From positions 1-43,157 of IMG/VR virus record IMGVR_UViG_3300033076_000514: a DNA stretch of 43,157 nt. One strand, given 5' to 3'. The notes below the pieces were generated by a model. It was not told the origin of the DNA. It saw only the letters and a list, made by a program, of their open reading frames with translations, and did no database searches. This stretch comes from a virus (Duplodnaviria > Caudoviricetes). How positions within the stretch are numbered: the stretch's first letter is position 1; every line of letters starts with the position of its first letter. Of this stretch, positions 11,283 to 36,175 are shown piece after piece. Both the position numbers and the translations under genes were made by a program.

Positions 11283-11942
11283 TTAACGGCGTATTTTTTC
11301 TTCAAGGTAGTCAGTGTTTTCAGCCACGGTGGGTCGGGGTTCAGCAGGACCTTCTTCGCCCAAAATAGCCATGTCCAACATTTTGACCACAGTGGCAGCA
11401 AGTTTGGGATTCTTTTGTGTAGCAGGATACAAGCTCATTACAAGAGCTGTTTTACGACGTTCGTTTAGTGTTGGCCAACTGTTGCGAATTTCTGTGGCCG
11501 ATGTCATTCCAGGACCAAACTCCACTGTGGGCAAGTAAGCCATATAAGCATGTTGGCTCATTGGTGCAAGTTCTGTTTGCCCTTTTAGCGGTTGCAAATA
11601 CGCAGGTGTGCCGTCTTTTTTGTTGCCGCCGGCCTGTGGTGGTTTGTTGGCATCTTTTTCGCTGCGAACAAAGATCAACTGTGTGTTTTCTTTGTCCAAC
11701 TGGTCAGTGATTTCTCTAGCTTGAAATGGGCTCTTGACTTGAACAAAATGTCCTGGCGCAACACCGGCTAACTTAGCAAGTTTTTCTTTCAACGCAAAGG
11801 GAAATGGGCGAGTTGATGTGTCGTTGGTTGCAGCAACGTAGACATCTGCGCCAGGAAATGCGTCTTGTGCTTGTTTATATAATGCATAATGGCCCGCGTG
11901 AAATGGGTGAAAGCCCCCGGGCATGATAACTACTTGCTTCAT
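11283..11942 (-). CDS. HxGH (cytidyltransferase-like) nucleotidyltransferase
   Basis: PGGFHPFHAGH and SATEIR motifs; TAAATA (11949-11954) 6 nt upstream. Confidence 0.8.
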   Translation of the reverse strand: MKQVVIMPGGFHPFHAGHYALYKQAQDAFPGADVYVAATNDTSTRPFPFALKEKLAKLAGVAPGHFVQVKSPFQAREITDQLDKENTQLIFVRSEKDANKPPQAGGNKKDGTPAYLQPLKGQTELAPMSQHAYMAYLPTVEFGPGMTSATEIRNSWPTLNERRKTALVMSLYPATQKNPKLAATVVKMLDMAILGEEGPAEPRPTVAENTDYLEEKIRR

Positions 11943-19643: not shown

Positions 19644-20624
19644 TTACCCGCGCTCAGGGAAATAATCTTCTATCACACTGCGTCTGCGTATGTCCACAGT
19701 AATGCAATGCATGCCGCCGTCCCAGAACCCACGACATCTAAATGGCACCCAATGCACACAAATGTCGTGCTCTTTTAATGTTTGTTCCAGCGCAGCATTG
19801 TAACCCAACATCATTACGTTTTTTTCGTCGATGACCAAACAATTTAATTCAAAATAAGTTTCAGTGTAGTCACCCACCCAGTCTTGAGCATGGCGAATTA
19901 CGTGTTCATTGAAGCTGTGATTCAGTGTCACGCCTTCGGCATAGAATTTGCCATTGTATTCTTTGCCAGGCGGCGGCGAAGTTCTGTGCTGCCAATACGT
20001 GGGATGATCCAAAAAGATTGTTTGCCAACCGGGGAAATTTCTATCATAGCCGTTGTAATAATGATTGGCAATGATCAAGCCAGGCTTTAACACAGCAAAA
20101 CAACCATCCATGTGCCCACCATTTTTTTCCCAGGTAATTCTGTAGTTGTCAAATGCAGAATTTTCCAGCCTGGGAATATCAAATACGTCTGTGTCGATGA
20201 TAACATCGCGGCCCACACGCACCACATTGGCGCCATTGATAATGTGATTGGTCCCTGCTATCACATTGCCACCAGCGGCGCGATACTGTTCTAGTGTGGA
20301 TTGCCATGCTGGATTGTTGCTGTAGGGAGTTAATAACGTCGTGCCCTGTGTTAAAAAGGTATCGCGTGGGCATATTTCGGGTTTCTTCAGCGTGCCTGCT
20401 GAGTCGACAAAATCGTCAATGGAATTGTATTCGGGCCTGCGAACAACAACGCCAAATTCTTTCAGCTTGTTTTCGATTGTTTTTAAATCCTGTTGCGTCT
20501 TTTCAGTTATTTCGTAGAATACATCGCGCACCGCAGGCTCTAAATGATCATACCAATCAGCGGGATATATGTCTCCAAGCCATACTTCTTCCAGTGGGCT
20601 CCATGAATTGTGACTGTTGATCAA
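19644..20624 (-). CDS. Amidinotransferase (pentein superfamily)
   Basis: NSWSPLEEVWLG, CPRD, GHMDG, GGMHCITVD (catalytic His and Cys motifs). Confidence 0.85.
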   Translation of the reverse strand: MINSHNSWSPLEEVWLGDIYPADWYDHLEPAVRDVFYEITEKTQQDLKTIENKLKEFGVVVRRPEYNSIDDFVDSAGTLKKPEICPRDTFLTQGTTLLTPYSNNPAWQSTLEQYRAAGGNVIAGTNHIINGANVVRVGRDVIIDTDVFDIPRLENSAFDNYRITWEKNGGHMDGCFAVLKPGLIIANHYYNGYDRNFPGWQTIFLDHPTYWQHRTSPPPGKEYNGKFYAEGVTLNHSFNEHVIRHAQDWVGDYTETYFELNCLVIDEKNVMMLGYNAALEQTLKEHDICVHWVPFRCRGFWDGGMHCITVDIRRRSVIEDYFPERG

Positions 20625-21999: not shown

Positions 22000-22023
22000 G
22001 TGCGCTCCTGTAGCACATATTTA
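21998..22023 (-). promoter_or_regulatory. TAAATA promoter plus start-codon-sequestering hairpin of the endolysin
   Basis: UAAAU-AUGUGC-UACAGGAGC-GCACAU-G. Confidence 0.65.
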
Positions 22024-22224
22024 GCGCCTGCCCCAGCTGATCCAGTTCCACACACGCTCGTGAACAAAATAAAGAACAGTATTAAATGTTAATTGAATTA
22101 CCGCAATGGTGCTGCTCACAGCAAAGTCCCCTAGTATTGCATAGCTAATGGCAAATGTAGCTCCTGAACCGCATATTCGCCAACTCACTGTTTTAGCTAT
22201 GCTGCGAGCAGTGGTTTCGTTCAT
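22021..22224 (-). CDS. DUF2061-like small membrane protein
   Basis: RSIAKTVSWR...YFVHERVW. Confidence 0.8.
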   Translation of the reverse strand: MNETTARSIAKTVSWRICGSGATFAISYAILGDFAVSSTIAVIQLTFNTVLYFVHERVWNWISWGRR

Positions 22225-23018
22225 TTTAATCCGAGATCTCGACGAATCTTTGTAGCACTGATATCATGTGTGGCATCATCAAAGGTTTCCTGCTCGATCT
22301 TGTAGCCTACATCACGCCCGTAGGTAATGTTTACGATGTTGGGCACAACTTGAATTTCATACTTGCCTTGATAAATGGGATCTAAATCACGACGAATAAA
22401 TGATTTAACCCGTTCAATTTCAAAAGGATTGGATCCTTGCCAACCTTGACAGTCGCGTATTTGTATAACAACTTGTCCGGTCTTTTTTATAGCACGTTCA
22501 AACAGCGCACGATGCCCGTCGTGCCAGGGTTGCCAACGTCCCAGCATTTGCACAGTTTCTCGTTTCCAGTCAAATGTGGGACGGCGGAAGTTTCCCAGGA
22601 TGTGATGCGCCACAAATTCGCCCCATTTTACTGCGTCCTGTTCTGTTATGCGGAAATCATAAACTTCGGGTTCCTGGAACATGGCATTGGTGTCTGCGTA
22701 GCGCCCTTCTCTGATGGTATCCACCCATACTGTCCAGTCTGCTTTGTAGTTGTCGCGCATGGCTTTTAAGGGCGCAACAAAATCACAAATAGCATAATCA
22801 CAGCCTGAAGCGTCGGCCAATTCTCTCATGCGTTTTGATTGACGTATGCGACCGGCTTCAGAAAAGTCCCAGTCATCATACTTTTTACGAATATCGTCGG
22901 CATTGAACCAAGCCACGGTTTTTGTAGCAGCTTGTAAATGATCTAAGATATACTGTGCTAGATATGTTTTTCCCGCGCCTGGCAGGCCCATTACCAAAAT
23001 ACGCTGTGTTTGTTTCAT
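22221..23018 (-). CDS. Adenylylsulfate-kinase-like domain fused to an HxGH nucleotidyltransferase
   Basis: GLPGAGKT, NADDIR, DFSEAGR, FVAP, FQEP (CysC-like); GRWQPWHDGH and ISATKIR (HUP NTase). Confidence 0.82.
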   Translation of the reverse strand: MKQTQRILVMGLPGAGKTYLAQYILDHLQAATKTVAWFNADDIRKKYDDWDFSEAGRIRQSKRMRELADASGCDYAICDFVAPLKAMRDNYKADWTVWVDTIREGRYADTNAMFQEPEVYDFRITEQDAVKWGEFVAHHILGNFRRPTFDWKRETVQMLGRWQPWHDGHRALFERAIKKTGQVVIQIRDCQGWQGSNPFEIERVKSFIRRDLDPIYQGKYEIQVVPNIVNITYGRDVGYKIEQETFDDATHDISATKIRRDLGLK

Positions 23019-23635
23019 CTTTTTTTCCTTGAAGCATGATGAGCTAACGCATCTGTAGGCTGTGCGCCCACAGGCTGAAAATACTTGGAGTTAGTATCTT
23101 CTTTTATTATATCATTTATCATGATATTATCCCAAGCAATGGGAAATTCCAATTCACGTTCTAATTTCTGCAAATATTGTGCGCCATAAAGATGCAATAA
23201 TTCATAACTCAAATATGTGGGCTGTGCAAACTTTGAATATTCAGCCACGGCCTGCTGATATGTTGCACCACCGCGCACACGAGTTTGTTGATAATCTAAT
23301 ATGTTGCAATCCCTGCCCAGCACAGCTATCTTTACTCTGTGGCCCAAATTCTGCACACCTGCCACAAAGGCTTTGAAGTCCGGCACAGTGGGTTCACCAT
23401 TGTTCATATACGGCACTGAAATAGACGTAACGTGCCAGTCACTCTGTGTCCAAGCGGCATGACGTAGATCCTGAGGATTCAACCAGTAATGCGCCCAGGG
23501 TTCTTCGTCGTGCCCAATCCAGTATTCACTCAGCAGCGCACGCCAACCCAGCACACGCGGATGCAGGGCAAATATCTTTGACCATAAATGATTTCCCGAA
23601 CCCTGCGGGCCTGTTAGTATTAATAAGGTTTTCAT
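23015..23635 (-). CDS. Sulfotransferase-fold P-loop protein
   Basis: ILTGPQGSGNH, IAVLGRD, YLSYELL; start at MKTLL by ATGA coupling. Confidence 0.6.
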   Translation of the reverse strand: MKTLLILTGPQGSGNHLWSKIFALHPRVLGWRALLSEYWIGHDEEPWAHYWLNPQDLRHAAWTQSDWHVTSISVPYMNNGEPTVPDFKAFVAGVQNLGHRVKIAVLGRDCNILDYQQTRVRGGATYQQAVAEYSKFAQPTYLSYELLHLYGAQYLQKLERELEFPIAWDNIMINDIIKEDTNSKYFQPVGAQPTDALAHHASRKKR

Positions 23636-24282
23636 TGTGCTAAATTTGCCAAAAAGTCCATGGTTCGACCAGTGCGAATTCCTGTTAATTGAAATGTCAC
23701 ACGTGGGTGATATCCAGCATTGGCAGTGGAGTGTGGCATGTTTTGCCAATCAAATGTTGTGACATCTCCTGCACGCCATTGATTGTAGTGATAGTTGCCA
23801 TATTCCCAAAACTGTCCTGGTTGCCAATCAGTTAATTGAATCATTATTCTCATGATGGTGTCCGGTGCTTCCGGAGCCCATTTATATAGCTTGTCTATGT
23901 GTAGGTTCCACAATTCTCCGGGCTGCTGCACGTGAATGCGATTCATACAGCGATCCAAGCCCACTGCGTCAGAAATGGCCTGCAAGCTAGCGGGCAAGCG
24001 CCAGTTCAAATGCGTAATGGCCAAATCTCGATTCATGCCATTGGCAGTTAAATCCAATTCTTCTGCTGCTAGTTCGTCTGGCGGGGCTTCAATGCCTTCA
24101 CCTTTGTATCCACGTGTGGCCCAGGTAGCTGGTTTTGCATTTGCAATAATATCTTCTAAGTCCCCTTGCCACGTGGGTTCAATGTGCCCTAGATAAGCCA
24201 TTGCGTCTTGGGCGCTGTCTTTTCTTTTGGGATCGAAATGATAGCGGCTTCTTGATTTTGCTGTTTCCCAATTTGATTTCAT
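23632..24282 (-). CDS. 2OG-Fe(II) oxygenase / cupin-like protein
   Basis: LHID...PHSTAN...RVTFQ (HxD...H...R pattern). Confidence 0.7.
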   Translation of the reverse strand: MKSNWETAKSRSRYHFDPKRKDSAQDAMAYLGHIEPTWQGDLEDIIANAKPATWATRGYKGEGIEAPPDELAAEELDLTANGMNRDLAITHLNWRLPASLQAISDAVGLDRCMNRIHVQQPGELWNLHIDKLYKWAPEAPDTIMRIMIQLTDWQPGQFWEYGNYHYNQWRAGDVTTFDWQNMPHSTANAGYHPRVTFQLTGIRTGRTMDFLANLAQ

Positions 24283-24902
24283 ATTACTACTACCTTTGCA
24301 TCTGCGTATTCGTATACCTGTGAATATTCTTCAGGGGGCTGTGCAATGTGTAATAATTCACACAGCTCTTTGTTATCATATGGCACTGATCCAGGATACG
24401 TCAGCGTGGCGTTGACAATGCCTGTGTTTTGCTGCCGAATAATCCCGGCCATAGTTTTTAAATCTCTGTAGTAATCATGATACCGGGGATATGTTATATC
24501 AAAATGACCACATTTTACCCACCAGCCCAGGCAAGCGTCATCCCCACGATACACCAATACAATAGGAACTTCAGGAAATAGTTTTCGTAAATGGTCGATA
24601 TGATCACTAAAGATGTGACTTTTAATGATGCGAACGCCCTTTGCATCTGTGCTAAAAGGTGTGTCAAACATGGCTTCAAGTTCTGCACGAGTGTATTCAT
24701 TTAAGTTCTCTGGTATGTTGCACGCCATGCCGGGATCAAAATAAGCACCCAAGTGCATTAAATCCATTTTGCCCCCGGCATCGTGATAGTAAGTCCATTC
24801 GTCCCTGTAATCACTACGATCTATACTGGGCGAATAATAAATGTTTTTTACAACTGAGCTCCATTTAGAGCCTGGAGCACCGGCTACGAAAATATATTTC
24901 AT
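24279..24902 (-). CDS. Sulfotransferase-fold P-loop protein
   Basis: FVAGAPGSKWS, RIIKSH, IVLVYR. Confidence 0.6.
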   Translation of the reverse strand: MKYIFVAGAPGSKWSSVVKNIYYSPSIDRSDYRDEWTYYHDAGGKMDLMHLGAYFDPGMACNIPENLNEYTRAELEAMFDTPFSTDAKGVRIIKSHIFSDHIDHLRKLFPEVPIVLVYRGDDACLGWWVKCGHFDITYPRYHDYYRDLKTMAGIIRQQNTGIVNATLTYPGSVPYDNKELCELLHIAQPPEEYSQVYEYADAKVVVI

Positions 24903-25864
24903 TGAAGTGGGATTTTTCTAAAGTATGGCATCCATTGTGTGCGAATGCTTTCGAGATATTTACGCACACCTTCGGGGGTCTGTTCGCTTTTTACAGCATA
25001 CATCAAATTGTCTTCGAAAATCTTTTTGGCTTCGGCACTGTTGATTGCCGGCACAAATAATTTATTGTAGTAATCAATTTGCTCCTTGGGAGTGCCCGGT
25101 GGCATCACAATGACCCAGGCTGCATAAACATTGAGTCCTGGGATGGTATCTTTCCACAGTGGAACATCGGGAATTTGCGCCAGCTTTTGCTCGCCTGCCA
25201 AAGCAATGTATTTTACTTTGCCGGCTTTTACCAATGGATAAGCAATGGCCGTGGGCATAATACCAAATTCCACTTGATTGCCTGCTACATCTTGCACTGC
25301 TTGTGCAGGACCTTTGTATAACACACTTTTTACTTGATCACTGTTGCCGTTGCTTTTGTCCATTAGGTATTCAAATACCAATTTGTGTGCTGTTGCACCC
25401 AGTCCAAAATTAATGGGTTCTTTGGTTTCACGCAAACGCTTGACCAAGTCTTGCGGTGTGTTTGTTTTGCTGTTGATATTTGCAACCACGCACAGCGGAC
25501 TTTTTGCAATGGTTGTGACCAGCGCAAGTTCCATTGGGTTGTATTGTGCTTGCTCGGGATACCAAATTTCAGTGGCTGTGAACACCCCTTGTTGACTGGC
25601 AATAAACAAGTTGCTGCCGTCCAGTGGCTGTTTGACAAACCAATTAAGGCCCACAGTTTCGCCTGCTCCGGGTTTGTTGTTTACAACATAGGCAGTCCCG
25701 GGATTGTTTTTTTCCACAACGGAACTGACAATTCTAAAACTGACTTCGTTGCCCGACCCTGGAGCATAGCCCACTGTGACGTTGACCACTCGGGGCGGGG
25801 TAAATGCCATGGCTCCTGACATCGCTGTTATAGCTATTGCTGTTAAAAATTTTTTGATCATCAT
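24899..25864 (-). CDS. Bug/TctC tripartite tricarboxylate transporter substrate-binding protein
   Basis: Signal peptide, VGYAPGSG, VNNKPGAG, YKGPAQAVQDVAG, PPGTP. Confidence 0.88.
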   Translation of the reverse strand: MMIKKFLTAIAITAMSGAMAFTPPRVVNVTVGYAPGSGNEVSFRIVSSVVEKNNPGTAYVVNNKPGAGETVGLNWFVKQPLDGSNLFIASQQGVFTATEIWYPEQAQYNPMELALVTTIAKSPLCVVANINSKTNTPQDLVKRLRETKEPINFGLGATAHKLVFEYLMDKSNGNSDQVKSVLYKGPAQAVQDVAGNQVEFGIMPTAIAYPLVKAGKVKYIALAGEQKLAQIPDVPLWKDTIPGLNVYAAWVIVMPPGTPKEQIDYYNKLFVPAINSAEAKKIFEDNLMYAVKSEQTPEGVRKYLESIRTQWMPYFRKIPLQ

Positions 25865-25916: not shown

Positions 25917-26636
25917 ATGAACACCAAAATTTTTAACCTCTTAACAAAAAATTTGCAGAGTGCGTTTAATTTACCCAAGTATGCAAATATTTCTATCACA
26001 GCAGACACAGTGGTGCAAGACCTACCCTGGACTCCGGCACGCTATAGAAAATTCAAAGATGCTGTGGAAGCAGAGTTGAGCCTGCCCTGTGATTATGTGG
26101 GCACACTGCGTGATATCACACACGATCTGTCAGAGCGTTATATACACAGATTTTTTGCGGAGATTTGGAAACCAAGGACCAATGACTATGACTACACTGG
26201 TTGGCAACTTGCCGACGAAATTAACGCACTCAATCCGCGCAGCGTTCTCGACGTTGGCTGCGGGTATCATCCATTTAAAGGTCGCATCGACAACCTCATT
26301 GGTATTGATCCTTATAATAACTGCGCTGATTACATGGTTGATGTTTTGGATTATGTTGGGAGCCATGATGTCATCATTGCTCTTGGGTCTATAAACTTCA
26401 ACGATCGTGATGAAATCGAAAGCCGCTTTGGGAAATGTGTAGAATTATTAGATAAGGGTGGTCGGTTTTATCTACGTGCCAATCCAGGAATTACACACCG
26501 AACAGGTCCTTATGTGGAAATCTTTAATTGGACTTTTGAAGTAGTAAAAGAATTCGCGGAAAAATACCATTTACGTTTGGATACCTACAAAAAGGACGCC
26601 AATGATAGATTGTATTTTGTTTACACCAAGAAATGA
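25917..26636 (+). CDS. Class I SAM methyltransferase with N-terminal ACP-like domain
   Basis: VLDVGCG, GIDP, DVIIALGS; divergent from tctC; TAAATA at 25875-25880. Confidence 0.8.
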   Translation: MNTKIFNLLTKNLQSAFNLPKYANISITADTVVQDLPWTPARYRKFKDAVEAELSLPCDYVGTLRDITHDLSERYIHRFFAEIWKPRTNDYDYTGWQLADEINALNPRSVLDVGCGYHPFKGRIDNLIGIDPYNNCADYMVDVLDYVGSHDVIIALGSINFNDRDEIESRFGKCVELLDKGGRFYLRANPGITHRTGPYVEIFNWTFEVVKEFAEKYHLRLDTYKKDANDRLYFVYTKK

Positions 26637-35385: not shown

Positions 35386-35624
35386 TCTGCTGGGTATGCT
35401 GGATTGGGAACATCAAGCTCCCAAATGTGCCATTTAGGTTTGTTGATACCGGTTGTAGTATCTTTAAGCAATTCCATTGTGCGGTTATGCTCTGCTTCTT
35501 GTAGAGTAGAATAAAATCCAACACCTAAGCCGCTGGTACCGCTACCACCGTAGGTAAAGTTCATGCCAGTTTGTTTAACTAACTGATATATCTTAATAAC
35601 TTTAGGTGGTTGGATTGGTTCCAT
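35382..35624 (-). CDS. Hypothetical protein
   Basis: 80 aa, coupled to neighbours. Confidence 0.6.
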   Translation of the reverse strand: MEPIQPPKVIKIYQLVKQTGMNFTYGGSGTSGLGVGFYSTLQEAEHNRTMELLKDTTTGINKPKWHIWELDVPNPAYPAE

Positions 35625-36175
35625 TATCTACTCCGCATTGCTGGATTATTGTCCCAGAGATTATTGCGTCTAGACAAATCCATATCCTTCTCACGATCGG
35701 GTTCGTCCATTAGCACTCTAGCTGTTTCTGCGGCTGCTACTCGCTTACGTAAACTTGAGCTAGAGAATGAATGATCTCTGCCGTTGAACACCAATTCAAT
35801 ACCGCGTTGGTGACATTCCCACTTACCTGAGAATTCTTTGTCCTGATATTCTACTCCAAGGATTCTGACGTCAACCGGTAGAATAAGTAAGAGATCAACC
35901 AGATCCTGCTCCGTTGAATAAACCACAACTTCATCCACGTAACGGCAAGCCGCCAATTGAATCTGTCTTTCCACAATGCTCTGTACCGGCTTGTTTTTAG
36001 TATCTGGGCGATCGATGGTAGGGTCGGTTTGTAAACCACAGATAAGATAATCGCAGTGGTTTTTAGCTTCGGAGAGCATAGCCACGTGACCAGCATGTAG
36101 CATGTCGAAAGTTGAGAACGTAATCCCAATGCGTTTACCTTCTGCTTTGAGCTTTTTAATATGATTGAAAATCAT
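35624..36175 (-). CDS. Glycerol-3-phosphate cytidylyltransferase-like (TagD-like)
   Basis: STFDMLHAGH, DYLICGL, RYVDEV, RDHSFSSSSLR. Confidence 0.87.
   Translation of the reverse strand: MIFNHIKKLKAEGKRIGITFSTFDMLHAGHVAMLSEAKNHCDYLICGLQTDPTIDRPDTKNKPVQSIVERQIQLAACRYVDEVVVYSTEQDLVDLLLILPVDVRILGVEYQDKEFSGKWECHQRGIELVFNGRDHSFSSSSLRKRVAAAETARVLMDEPDREKDMDLSRRNNLWDNNPAMRSR

Follow-up and report, generated by a model that had tools for sequence, protein, structure and literature searches.

A NadM-derived HxGH domain fused to a lid-shortened APS kinase is a candidate minimal PAPS synthase of phages with stand-alone relatives in SAR11

To our knowledge, annotation relies on only two types of ATP sulfurylase, Sat and CysDN. 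In Sat, sulfate is bound by the Gln and Arg of the QXRN loop, and the HxGH and C-terminal SxTxxR motifs bind ATP and pyrophosphate (PPi) across the superfamily, according to the available text of PMC3779200, which also places sat upstream of aprMBA in Allochromatium. SAR11 bacteria are described in the accessible parts of the literature as carrying aprBA, cysC, and cysQ and lacking sat and cysDN (PMC5069961, Table 3), with sat confined to the island of one strain (PMC5069961, PMC3448164) and aprAB under very strong purifying selection within an incomplete pathway (PMC12636525). Phage cysC has been reported as a sulfur auxiliary metabolic gene (AMG) (10.1101/2020.02.13.942896, PMC13584214, PMC13172472); the passages available from these sources describe an adenosine 5′-phosphosulfate (APS) kinase for sulfate reduction and mention neither a fused nucleotidyltransferase nor sulfation. 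Here, we analyzed a six-gene cassette of the 43-kb freshwater phage record IMGVR_UViG_3300033076_000514 (the window, i.e., the whole stretch of 43,157 nucleotides), which encodes a 265-residue fusion of an APS kinase-like domain to an HxGH nucleotidyltransferase domain. We regard it as likely that this protein, our candidate for a minimal 3′-phosphoadenosine 5′-phosphosulfate (PAPS) synthase, makes PAPS from sulfate. A preliminary description of the cassette proposed a compact PAPS synthase as well, pointing out that ATP sulfurylase is an HxGH-family enzyme; the proposal has gained strong comparative support from gene fusions, neighborhoods, and co-occurrence, whereas the reason given for it needs correction.

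Residues 6-93 of the fusion match APS_kinase (PF01583) with an E value of 4.4e-8 and 33.7 bits against a Pfam cut-off of 21.1. A fold search with residues 1-145 of its AlphaFold2 model (predicted local distance difference test [pLDDT], 91.9) returned APS kinases at all of ranks 1 to 5 (Z 15.7-18.4; rmsd of 1.8 across 130 residues for rank 1), followed by a gluconate kinase (Z 14.6). As modeled, this half is an APS kinase fold with a P-loop and a shortened lid, which lacks ∼19 residues of canonical CysC in the alignment with the full-lid homolog P0223.

By sequence, the HxGH half does not derive from Sat. PF01747 had no match in the fusion at E<=0.1, a PDB search with the profile of the ∼115-residue domain (A7) returned no Sat-domain chain at E<10, and the QXRN loop is absent, its place being taken by GRxQP as in NadM (R161 and Q163 in 58/58 rows); identity as a cut-down Sat was thus discarded. 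The best match of the profile was instead the NadM nicotinamide mononucleotide (NMN) adenylyltransferase (PDB 1f9a, E 3e-12), and the domain contains the NadM motif GRFQPxHxGH, along with a weak Pfam match to CTP_transf_like over residues 160-188 (E 6e-4, slightly below the cut-off). It misses the NadM family cut-off (25 versus 181 bits), and comparison with a single sequence, the NadM of phage BUDD, revealed the loss of two internal segments, one of them a Trp-bearing helix that we take to stack the nicotinamide in the NMN pocket. The structure does not discriminate between Sat and NadM because the fold search gave this half a single row (PPAT, 4nah; Z 10.4, rmsd 3.2, 110 residues aligned). 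Judged by its sequence, the domain is derived from a NadM-type NMN adenylyltransferase and is neither a member of the Sat family nor a complete NadM. HDGH, GRD, and SATKIR in the window protein nevertheless parallel three Sat motifs (HXXH, the GRD loop, and SGTxxR); in the family, HxGH is kept in 122 of 150 representatives, and SATxxR counts 82 and SGTxxR 9. Two further HxGH cytidylyltransferase-like genes of the window (11283-11942 and 35624-36175) were not recovered within this family.

The fusion family comprises 7697 clusters among 7965 candidates and occurs in an estimated ∼1400 IMG/VR stretches, as well as in cultured phages that include Sano, Salvo, and DLP6 (12 of the 15 matching records are near full length). 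Scanning of 66 of the 150 representatives, with long matches resembling chimeric assemblies left out, uncovered canonical full-lid APS kinases joined to the HxGH domain in both orders (P0153, with the HxGH domain first and PF01583 at 5.7e-63; P0223; P0259), and the CysC of a haloarchaeal fusion exceeds the TIGR00455 cut-off. Among the 80 closest viral fusion loci, many of them near-copies, a classical sulfotransferase is found in 24 and directly adjacent in 19. A sulfotransferase also neighbors the fusion on a Rhodoferax plasmid, and phage Sano has a weak Sulfotransfer_4 match two genes away. Of ten haloarchaeal loci listed, five were opened, and in all five a sulfotransferase, a CysC-HxGH fusion, and YqcI/YcgG, presumably a heme N-hydroxylase family, occur together; these cassettes lie on plasmids (L242, L243, L330, L331, and L332). 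A hydroxylate-then-sulfate small-molecule pathway is possible for this three-gene arrangement.

In Microvirga, the fusion lies in a nod cluster with nodC, nodI, nodJ, and a sulfotransferase, where it is followed by cysD and then by a cysN devoid of the kinase domain; in this one case, with CysDN present, the HxGH, GRD, and SAT motifs of the fusion are degenerate. The Microvirga CysN (L244:10181-11770) carries a C-terminal DUF2061 in place of the APS kinase domain, which links DUF2061, also the last gene of the window cassette, to sulfate activation. Protein P0128 has the HxGH domain fused to an N terminus that looks DUF2061-like by eye. A nod setting was rejected for the kinase-only homologs of Cupriavidus, Rhizobium, and Methylosinus (0/3 loci are nod clusters); two of them have a sulfotransferase within <7 kb and the third has none.

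Cellular relatives were surveyed in GTDB by scanning 5 of 64 parts and inspecting the best 80 of 343 matches, mostly SAR11 and SAR86. These 80 loci encode the HxGH domain in tandem with a short kinase (52) or fused to it (7), with aprA beside the domain in 7 and cysQ near it in 8. In L317-L319, the domain lies 31-74 bases upstream of, and on the same strand as, aprM-aprB-aprA-(small open reading frame [ORF])-tauE, where aprM is labeled by position and has no Pfam match; this is the position that sat holds before aprMBA. The window HxGH domain is 53% identical to these copies, both within a supported 29-row clade, and a second, convergent apr-adjacent arrangement forms a separate subclade from the L317-L319 type. 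Across 81 SAR11 genomes, the domain was detected in 67, AprA (APS reductase) in 67, both in 66 (G072, one of these, is unpublished), and neither in 13; Sat occurs in 2 and CysD in 3, and all three CysD-bearing genomes lack both the HxGH domain and AprA. Most SAR11 genomes have the domain paired with a short kinase, far from aprBA. As a separate observation, the SAR11 kinase-HxGH pair often resides amid organosulfur and one-carbon genes (L257-L300), with DddP-like, methanethiol-oxidase-like, and homocysteine methyltransferase-like neighbors, all under family cut-offs. In SAR86, CysD was found in 2/71 genomes, both without the domain; the check for Sat covered a single genome of this group.

APS chemistry is thus indicated by the CysC fusions in both orders, the sulfotransferase neighbors, the Microvirga nod case, the apr and short-kinase contexts, and the co-occurrence with AprA in SAR11. 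From gene anatomy, domain folds, family distribution, and gene context we infer each catalytic step and the acceptor as follows. The HxGH domain is predicted to convert ATP and sulfate to APS, as a family of ATP sulfurylase distinct from both Sat and CysDN, and the APS-kinase-fold domain would phosphorylate APS to PAPS for putative sulfotransferases of the phage itself. The stand-alone domain of SAR11 would act alongside AprBA, turning APS into sulfate and ATP, or would supply the adjacent short kinase. We assign a probability of roughly 0.6 to the whole of this interpretation, in which a third, NadM-derived ATP sulfurylase family is the missing enzyme of SAR11, bringing AprBA-dependent sulfite oxidation to completion there with a gain of ATP and supplying PAPS, provides PAPS in SAR86 and haloarchaea, and, joined to the lid-shortened APS kinase, makes sulfation self-sufficient in thousands of phages, here for an undescribed methylate-hydroxylate-sulfate pathway.

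The cassette itself consists of six minus-strand ORFs, all present in the ORF calls at 22021-25864, and is flanked by a lysis block (GH19 endolysin and spanin genes) and two virion genes (Table 1). The translational coupling reported in the preliminary description is real, with 4-nucleotide ATGA overlaps at 5/5 junctions by coordinates as opposed to 3/37 among the other close minus-strand junctions; under a looser flag, 6/37 of the latter overlap (Fisher p=5e-4 against the 5/5 of the cassette). The start of PA was placed at the coupled ATG at 23635, upstream of which the mechanical ORF list sets a TTG start at 23749. Promoter and terminator scans gave matches at chance level only. That description also called the six genes an operon; one fixed operon is not borne out by the relatives, since the 80 closest viral fusion loci include TctC in 9 and PA in 3. 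It overlooked the divergent methyltransferase gene, which belongs to the conserved core (the methyltransferase opposite TctC-PB-OG). Contigs of close relatives of the cassette reach 340-520 kb. Elsewhere in the window, a 326-residue ORF coupled to the spanin genes (19644-20624) looks amidinotransferase-like by eye, its sole match being an unnamed PHROG.

Table 1. Genes and domains of the cassette and its divergent neighbor (window coordinates)
Feature	Position	Strand	Basis
TctC/Bug-type solute-binding protein, 321 aa	24899-25864	-	PF03401 4.8e-24; signal-peptide-like N terminus read by eye
PB, 207 aa, sulfotransferase-like	24279-24902	-	Motif GAPGSKWS; invariant K94, H96, R119; Atlas neighbors
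OG, 216 aa, putative 2-oxoglutarate (2OG)-Fe(II) oxygenase	23632-24282	-	Invariant H128, D130, H184, R194
PA, 206 aa, sulfotransferase-like	23015-23635	-	TGPQGSGNH, without Walker A lysine; invariant R108, D109, R119, E145
Fusion, 265 aa, APS-kinase-like plus HxGH nucleotidyltransferase; candidate minimal PAPS synthase	22221-23018	-	Pfam; phrog_10255 full length; model
Kinase domain of fusion, residues 1-145	22584-23018	-	P-loop GLPGAGKT; PF01583; fold matches
HxGH domain of fusion, residues 152-265	22221-22565	-	GRWQPWHDGH, YGRD, and SATKIR motifs; NadM-derived
DUF2061 small membrane protein, 67 aa	22021-22224	-	Pfam DUF2061 1.9e-20
S-adenosylmethionine (SAM)-methyltransferase-like gene, divergent	25917-26636	+	CmoB weak match 1.4e-3; 71/80 PB loci

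The surroundings of PB were compared in 80 loci, some of them truncated. OG (79), the divergent methyltransferase (71), and TctC (70) are constant partners, whereas PA (45), an adjacent fusion (37), and DUF2061 (11) are variable. Extra genes encode a class I glutamine amidotransferase (Peptidase_C26) in 26 loci and a ferritin-like protein in 19, and some loci contain TctA as well as additional genes of sulfotransferase-like and GDSL-like type. Examples of the former two that are not in the window cassette are a ferritin-like diiron candidate with weak AurF/RNR matches (L197:199-894) and an amidotransferase (L175:4461-5021). Certain T4-like contigs, marine by our reading of their sample series (L124, L130, L145, L152, and L153; around 6001), carry two PA paralogs, a ferritin-like gene, and the methyltransferase directly behind neck/tail-terminator-like genes, with no fusion nearby. 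The methyltransferase of the window has an N-terminal extension of ∼75 residues that resembles by eye a degenerate acyl-carrier-like domain and is missing from shorter relatives; the latter match Methyltransf Pfams at ∼1e-6.

Of the gene identities first proposed, TctC, DUF2061, and the APS kinase half are supported by Pfam; the sulfotransferase-fold and 2OG-Fe(II)-like assignments stand without a profile match. PA, PB, and OG have no PHROG or NCBIfam match, relatives of PA/PB at L033 and L045 gave no sulfotransferase Pfam match either, and OG has no Pfam match and no significant PDB match (AtsK at E 0.44). The labels of these proteins rest on motifs and on language-model neighbors. OG displays the HxD...H triad and C-terminal RxS/T (here RxT) of 2OG-Fe(II) oxygenases, with the four tabulated residues in 39/39 rows and T196 in 37/39, and has 1817 unnamed relatives. 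PA and PB, which share no profile similarity with each other, have GPQGSGNH and GAPGSKWS, respectively, in all rows; as 5′-phosphosulfate loops these would be atypical, differing from the PRSG(T/S) of the phage sulfotransferases in A8. PB was modeled with a pLDDT of 92.1, and its invariant K-x-H and later Arg, like R108 of PA, could be counterparts of the catalytic and 3′-phosphate motifs of sulfotransferases. Atlas neighbors of PA (score, 0.94) and PB (0.95-0.96) bear sulfotransferase Pfams, on 13-50% of their members, and an hhalign comparison of PA with phage sulfotransferases reached a probability of 51% over 28 columns only. The alternative that the two are ordinary P-loop kinases, raised in the preliminary description, fails because the lysine of Walker A (GxxxxGK[ST]) is absent in all rows.

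Taken together, the module most likely serves as a tailoring pathway in which one acceptor would be methylated, hydroxylated, and sulfated. PAPS would be used by PB and PA, and the oxygenase and divergent methyltransferase would work with them on an acceptor in the cytoplasm. In our judgment there is a weak lean toward a small imported molecule captured by TctC, because the solute-binding protein is steadily present in the module; a glycan is held slightly behind, and a nucleic acid appears improbable. That the pathway is a complete sulfation pathway is less certain than that the fusion is a PAPS synthase.

The most serious competing explanation, although unlikely, holds that the fusion handles sulfur nucleotides as a mobile passenger of a gene hotspot, that the module is no sulfation pathway, and that PA and PB have the sulfotransferase fold with other or no chemistry. 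The inconstant adjacency of the fusion to PB, its many unrelated contexts, the lack of a canonical PRSG(T/S) loop in PA and PB, and their weak profile comparisons fit this view. Against it speak the ATGA coupling in the window and the presence of the fusion, at least its kinase half, in 36/36 first PA loci (L081-L116). Moreover, four of five module phages without an adjacent copy encode the fusion elsewhere in the record (a count made without a control set of module-free phages), the fifth being a 15%-complete fragment. Sat is present in 0/5 module phages. The invariant residues of PB and the sulfotransferase Pfams among the Atlas neighbors also argue for a role in sulfation.

Distinctly less probable is a domain that acts on APS without being an ATP sulfurylase, e.g., as an APS hydrolase or an APS:phosphate adenylyltransferase (with recycling of AMP or formation of ADP), in which case the phage protein would be an APS kinase relying on the ATP sulfurylase of the host. 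This would suit the SAR11 aprMBA/tauE link, where APS need only be removed (PMC5069961, available text), the missing QXRN, and those genomes that contain the domain alongside CysD or Sat. Yet the motifs that bind ATP and PPi are kept (PMC3779200, available text), destruction of APS makes little sense in a protein fused to an APS kinase beside a sulfotransferase, and SAR86 has the kinase-HxGH pair, with its two CysD-bearing genomes being devoid of the domain. The faintest of the alternatives, an NMN/nicotinic acid mononucleotide (NaMN) or sugar-phosphate nucleotidyltransferase fused to a small-molecule salvage kinase as in NadR-type proteins, draws on the NadM sequence matches, on a NADAR gene adjoining the fusion in phage Sano, and on the fact that phages often carry NAD-salvage genes, but is opposed by the two deleted segments, the missed NadM cut-offs, a NadD already present in 80/81 SAR11 genomes, and recurrent named cellular partners (cysC, cysQ, aprMBA, tauE, and sulfotransferases) with no NAD-salvage gene among the profiled recurrent families.

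Several observations weigh against a third ATP sulfurylase family serving sulfation, beginning with the absence of Sat matches and of QXRN described above. GRD is not invariant, the 108 motif matches including 65 GRD and 25 GRG, and GRG copies include the apr-adjacent ones of SAR11. The kinase remains far from the TIGR00455 cut-off (28 versus 138.7 bits) and lacks the full lid. No recognized classical sulfotransferase or PA/PB lies within 6 kb in 48 of the 80 viral fusion loci, and two of five fusion-bearing phage records have no PF13469 match. PA has no Pfam match and PB only a sub-threshold one to DUF6950 (E 0.015), neither being a sulfotransferase Pfam; PDB sequence searches with both returned nothing significant, and the profile comparison of PB with phage sulfotransferases gave a probability of 4%. 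CysD accompanies an intact fusion in 2/3 alphaproteobacteria (one CysD is partial), and both Sat-bearing SAR11 genomes hold the HxGH domain too, so that strict exclusion of the domain by CysD or Sat does not apply. The p=5e-13 of the SAR11 co-occurrence is overstated by the phylogenetic non-independence of the genomes, the domain and AprA genes are adjacent in only 10/66 of them, and a strict tie between the two fails in SAR86, where the domain occurs in 32/71 genomes and AprA in 0/71, in a scan whose control set gave no match either, with the same model that found AprA in 67 SAR11 genomes.

If the interpretation as a third ATP sulfurylase family is true, a 125-residue enzyme filling the SAR11 gap would change how the sulfur metabolism of the most abundant marine bacteria is read, phage "cysC" genes (7697 clusters) would serve sulfation as complete PAPS synthases instead of assisting sulfate reduction, and a very small enzyme for PAPS regeneration would be on offer. 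In the literature searched, as far as its text was available and with subscription journals largely missing and supplements not covered, no paper proposes this HxGH family as an ATP sulfurylase; the available text of PMC5099947 and PMC4921024 offered nothing of relevance. Phage proteins reported as cysC AMGs may belong to this family; PHROG 10255, named "kinase," covers the whole fusion.

The known systems closest to the fusion share some of its features and differ in others. NadM (Methanocaldococcus jannaschii MJ0541, 1f9a; NadM-Nudix, 2qjt) shares GRxQPxHxGH, NP(F), and the C-terminal SxTxxR and gives the best sequence scores, whereas the HxGH domain has ∼115 residues, two deletions, scores below the cut-offs, and a sulfur-activation context. 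The sat-aprMBA locus of Allochromatium vinosum is matched in SAR11 by an HxGH relative likewise directly upstream of aprM-aprB-aprA, with a 126-residue protein in place of the ∼400-residue Sat. Human PAPSS1 (PDB 1x6v) and the Aquifex SAT/APS kinase (2gks) likewise join an APS kinase fold to a domain of the HxGH superfamily, and PAPSS1 was the sole chain aligned over both halves of the fusion (254 residues, Z 16.9), the rmsd of 20.8 indicating two separate domains. Compared with the 546-630 residues of these enzymes, the fusion has 265, its HxGH half is not PF01747 and is devoid of QXRN and of the extra Sat domains, and the lid of its kinase is short. We read the fusion as acting in the manner of a bifunctional PAPS synthase, with less than half the length; it falls outside the Sat family.

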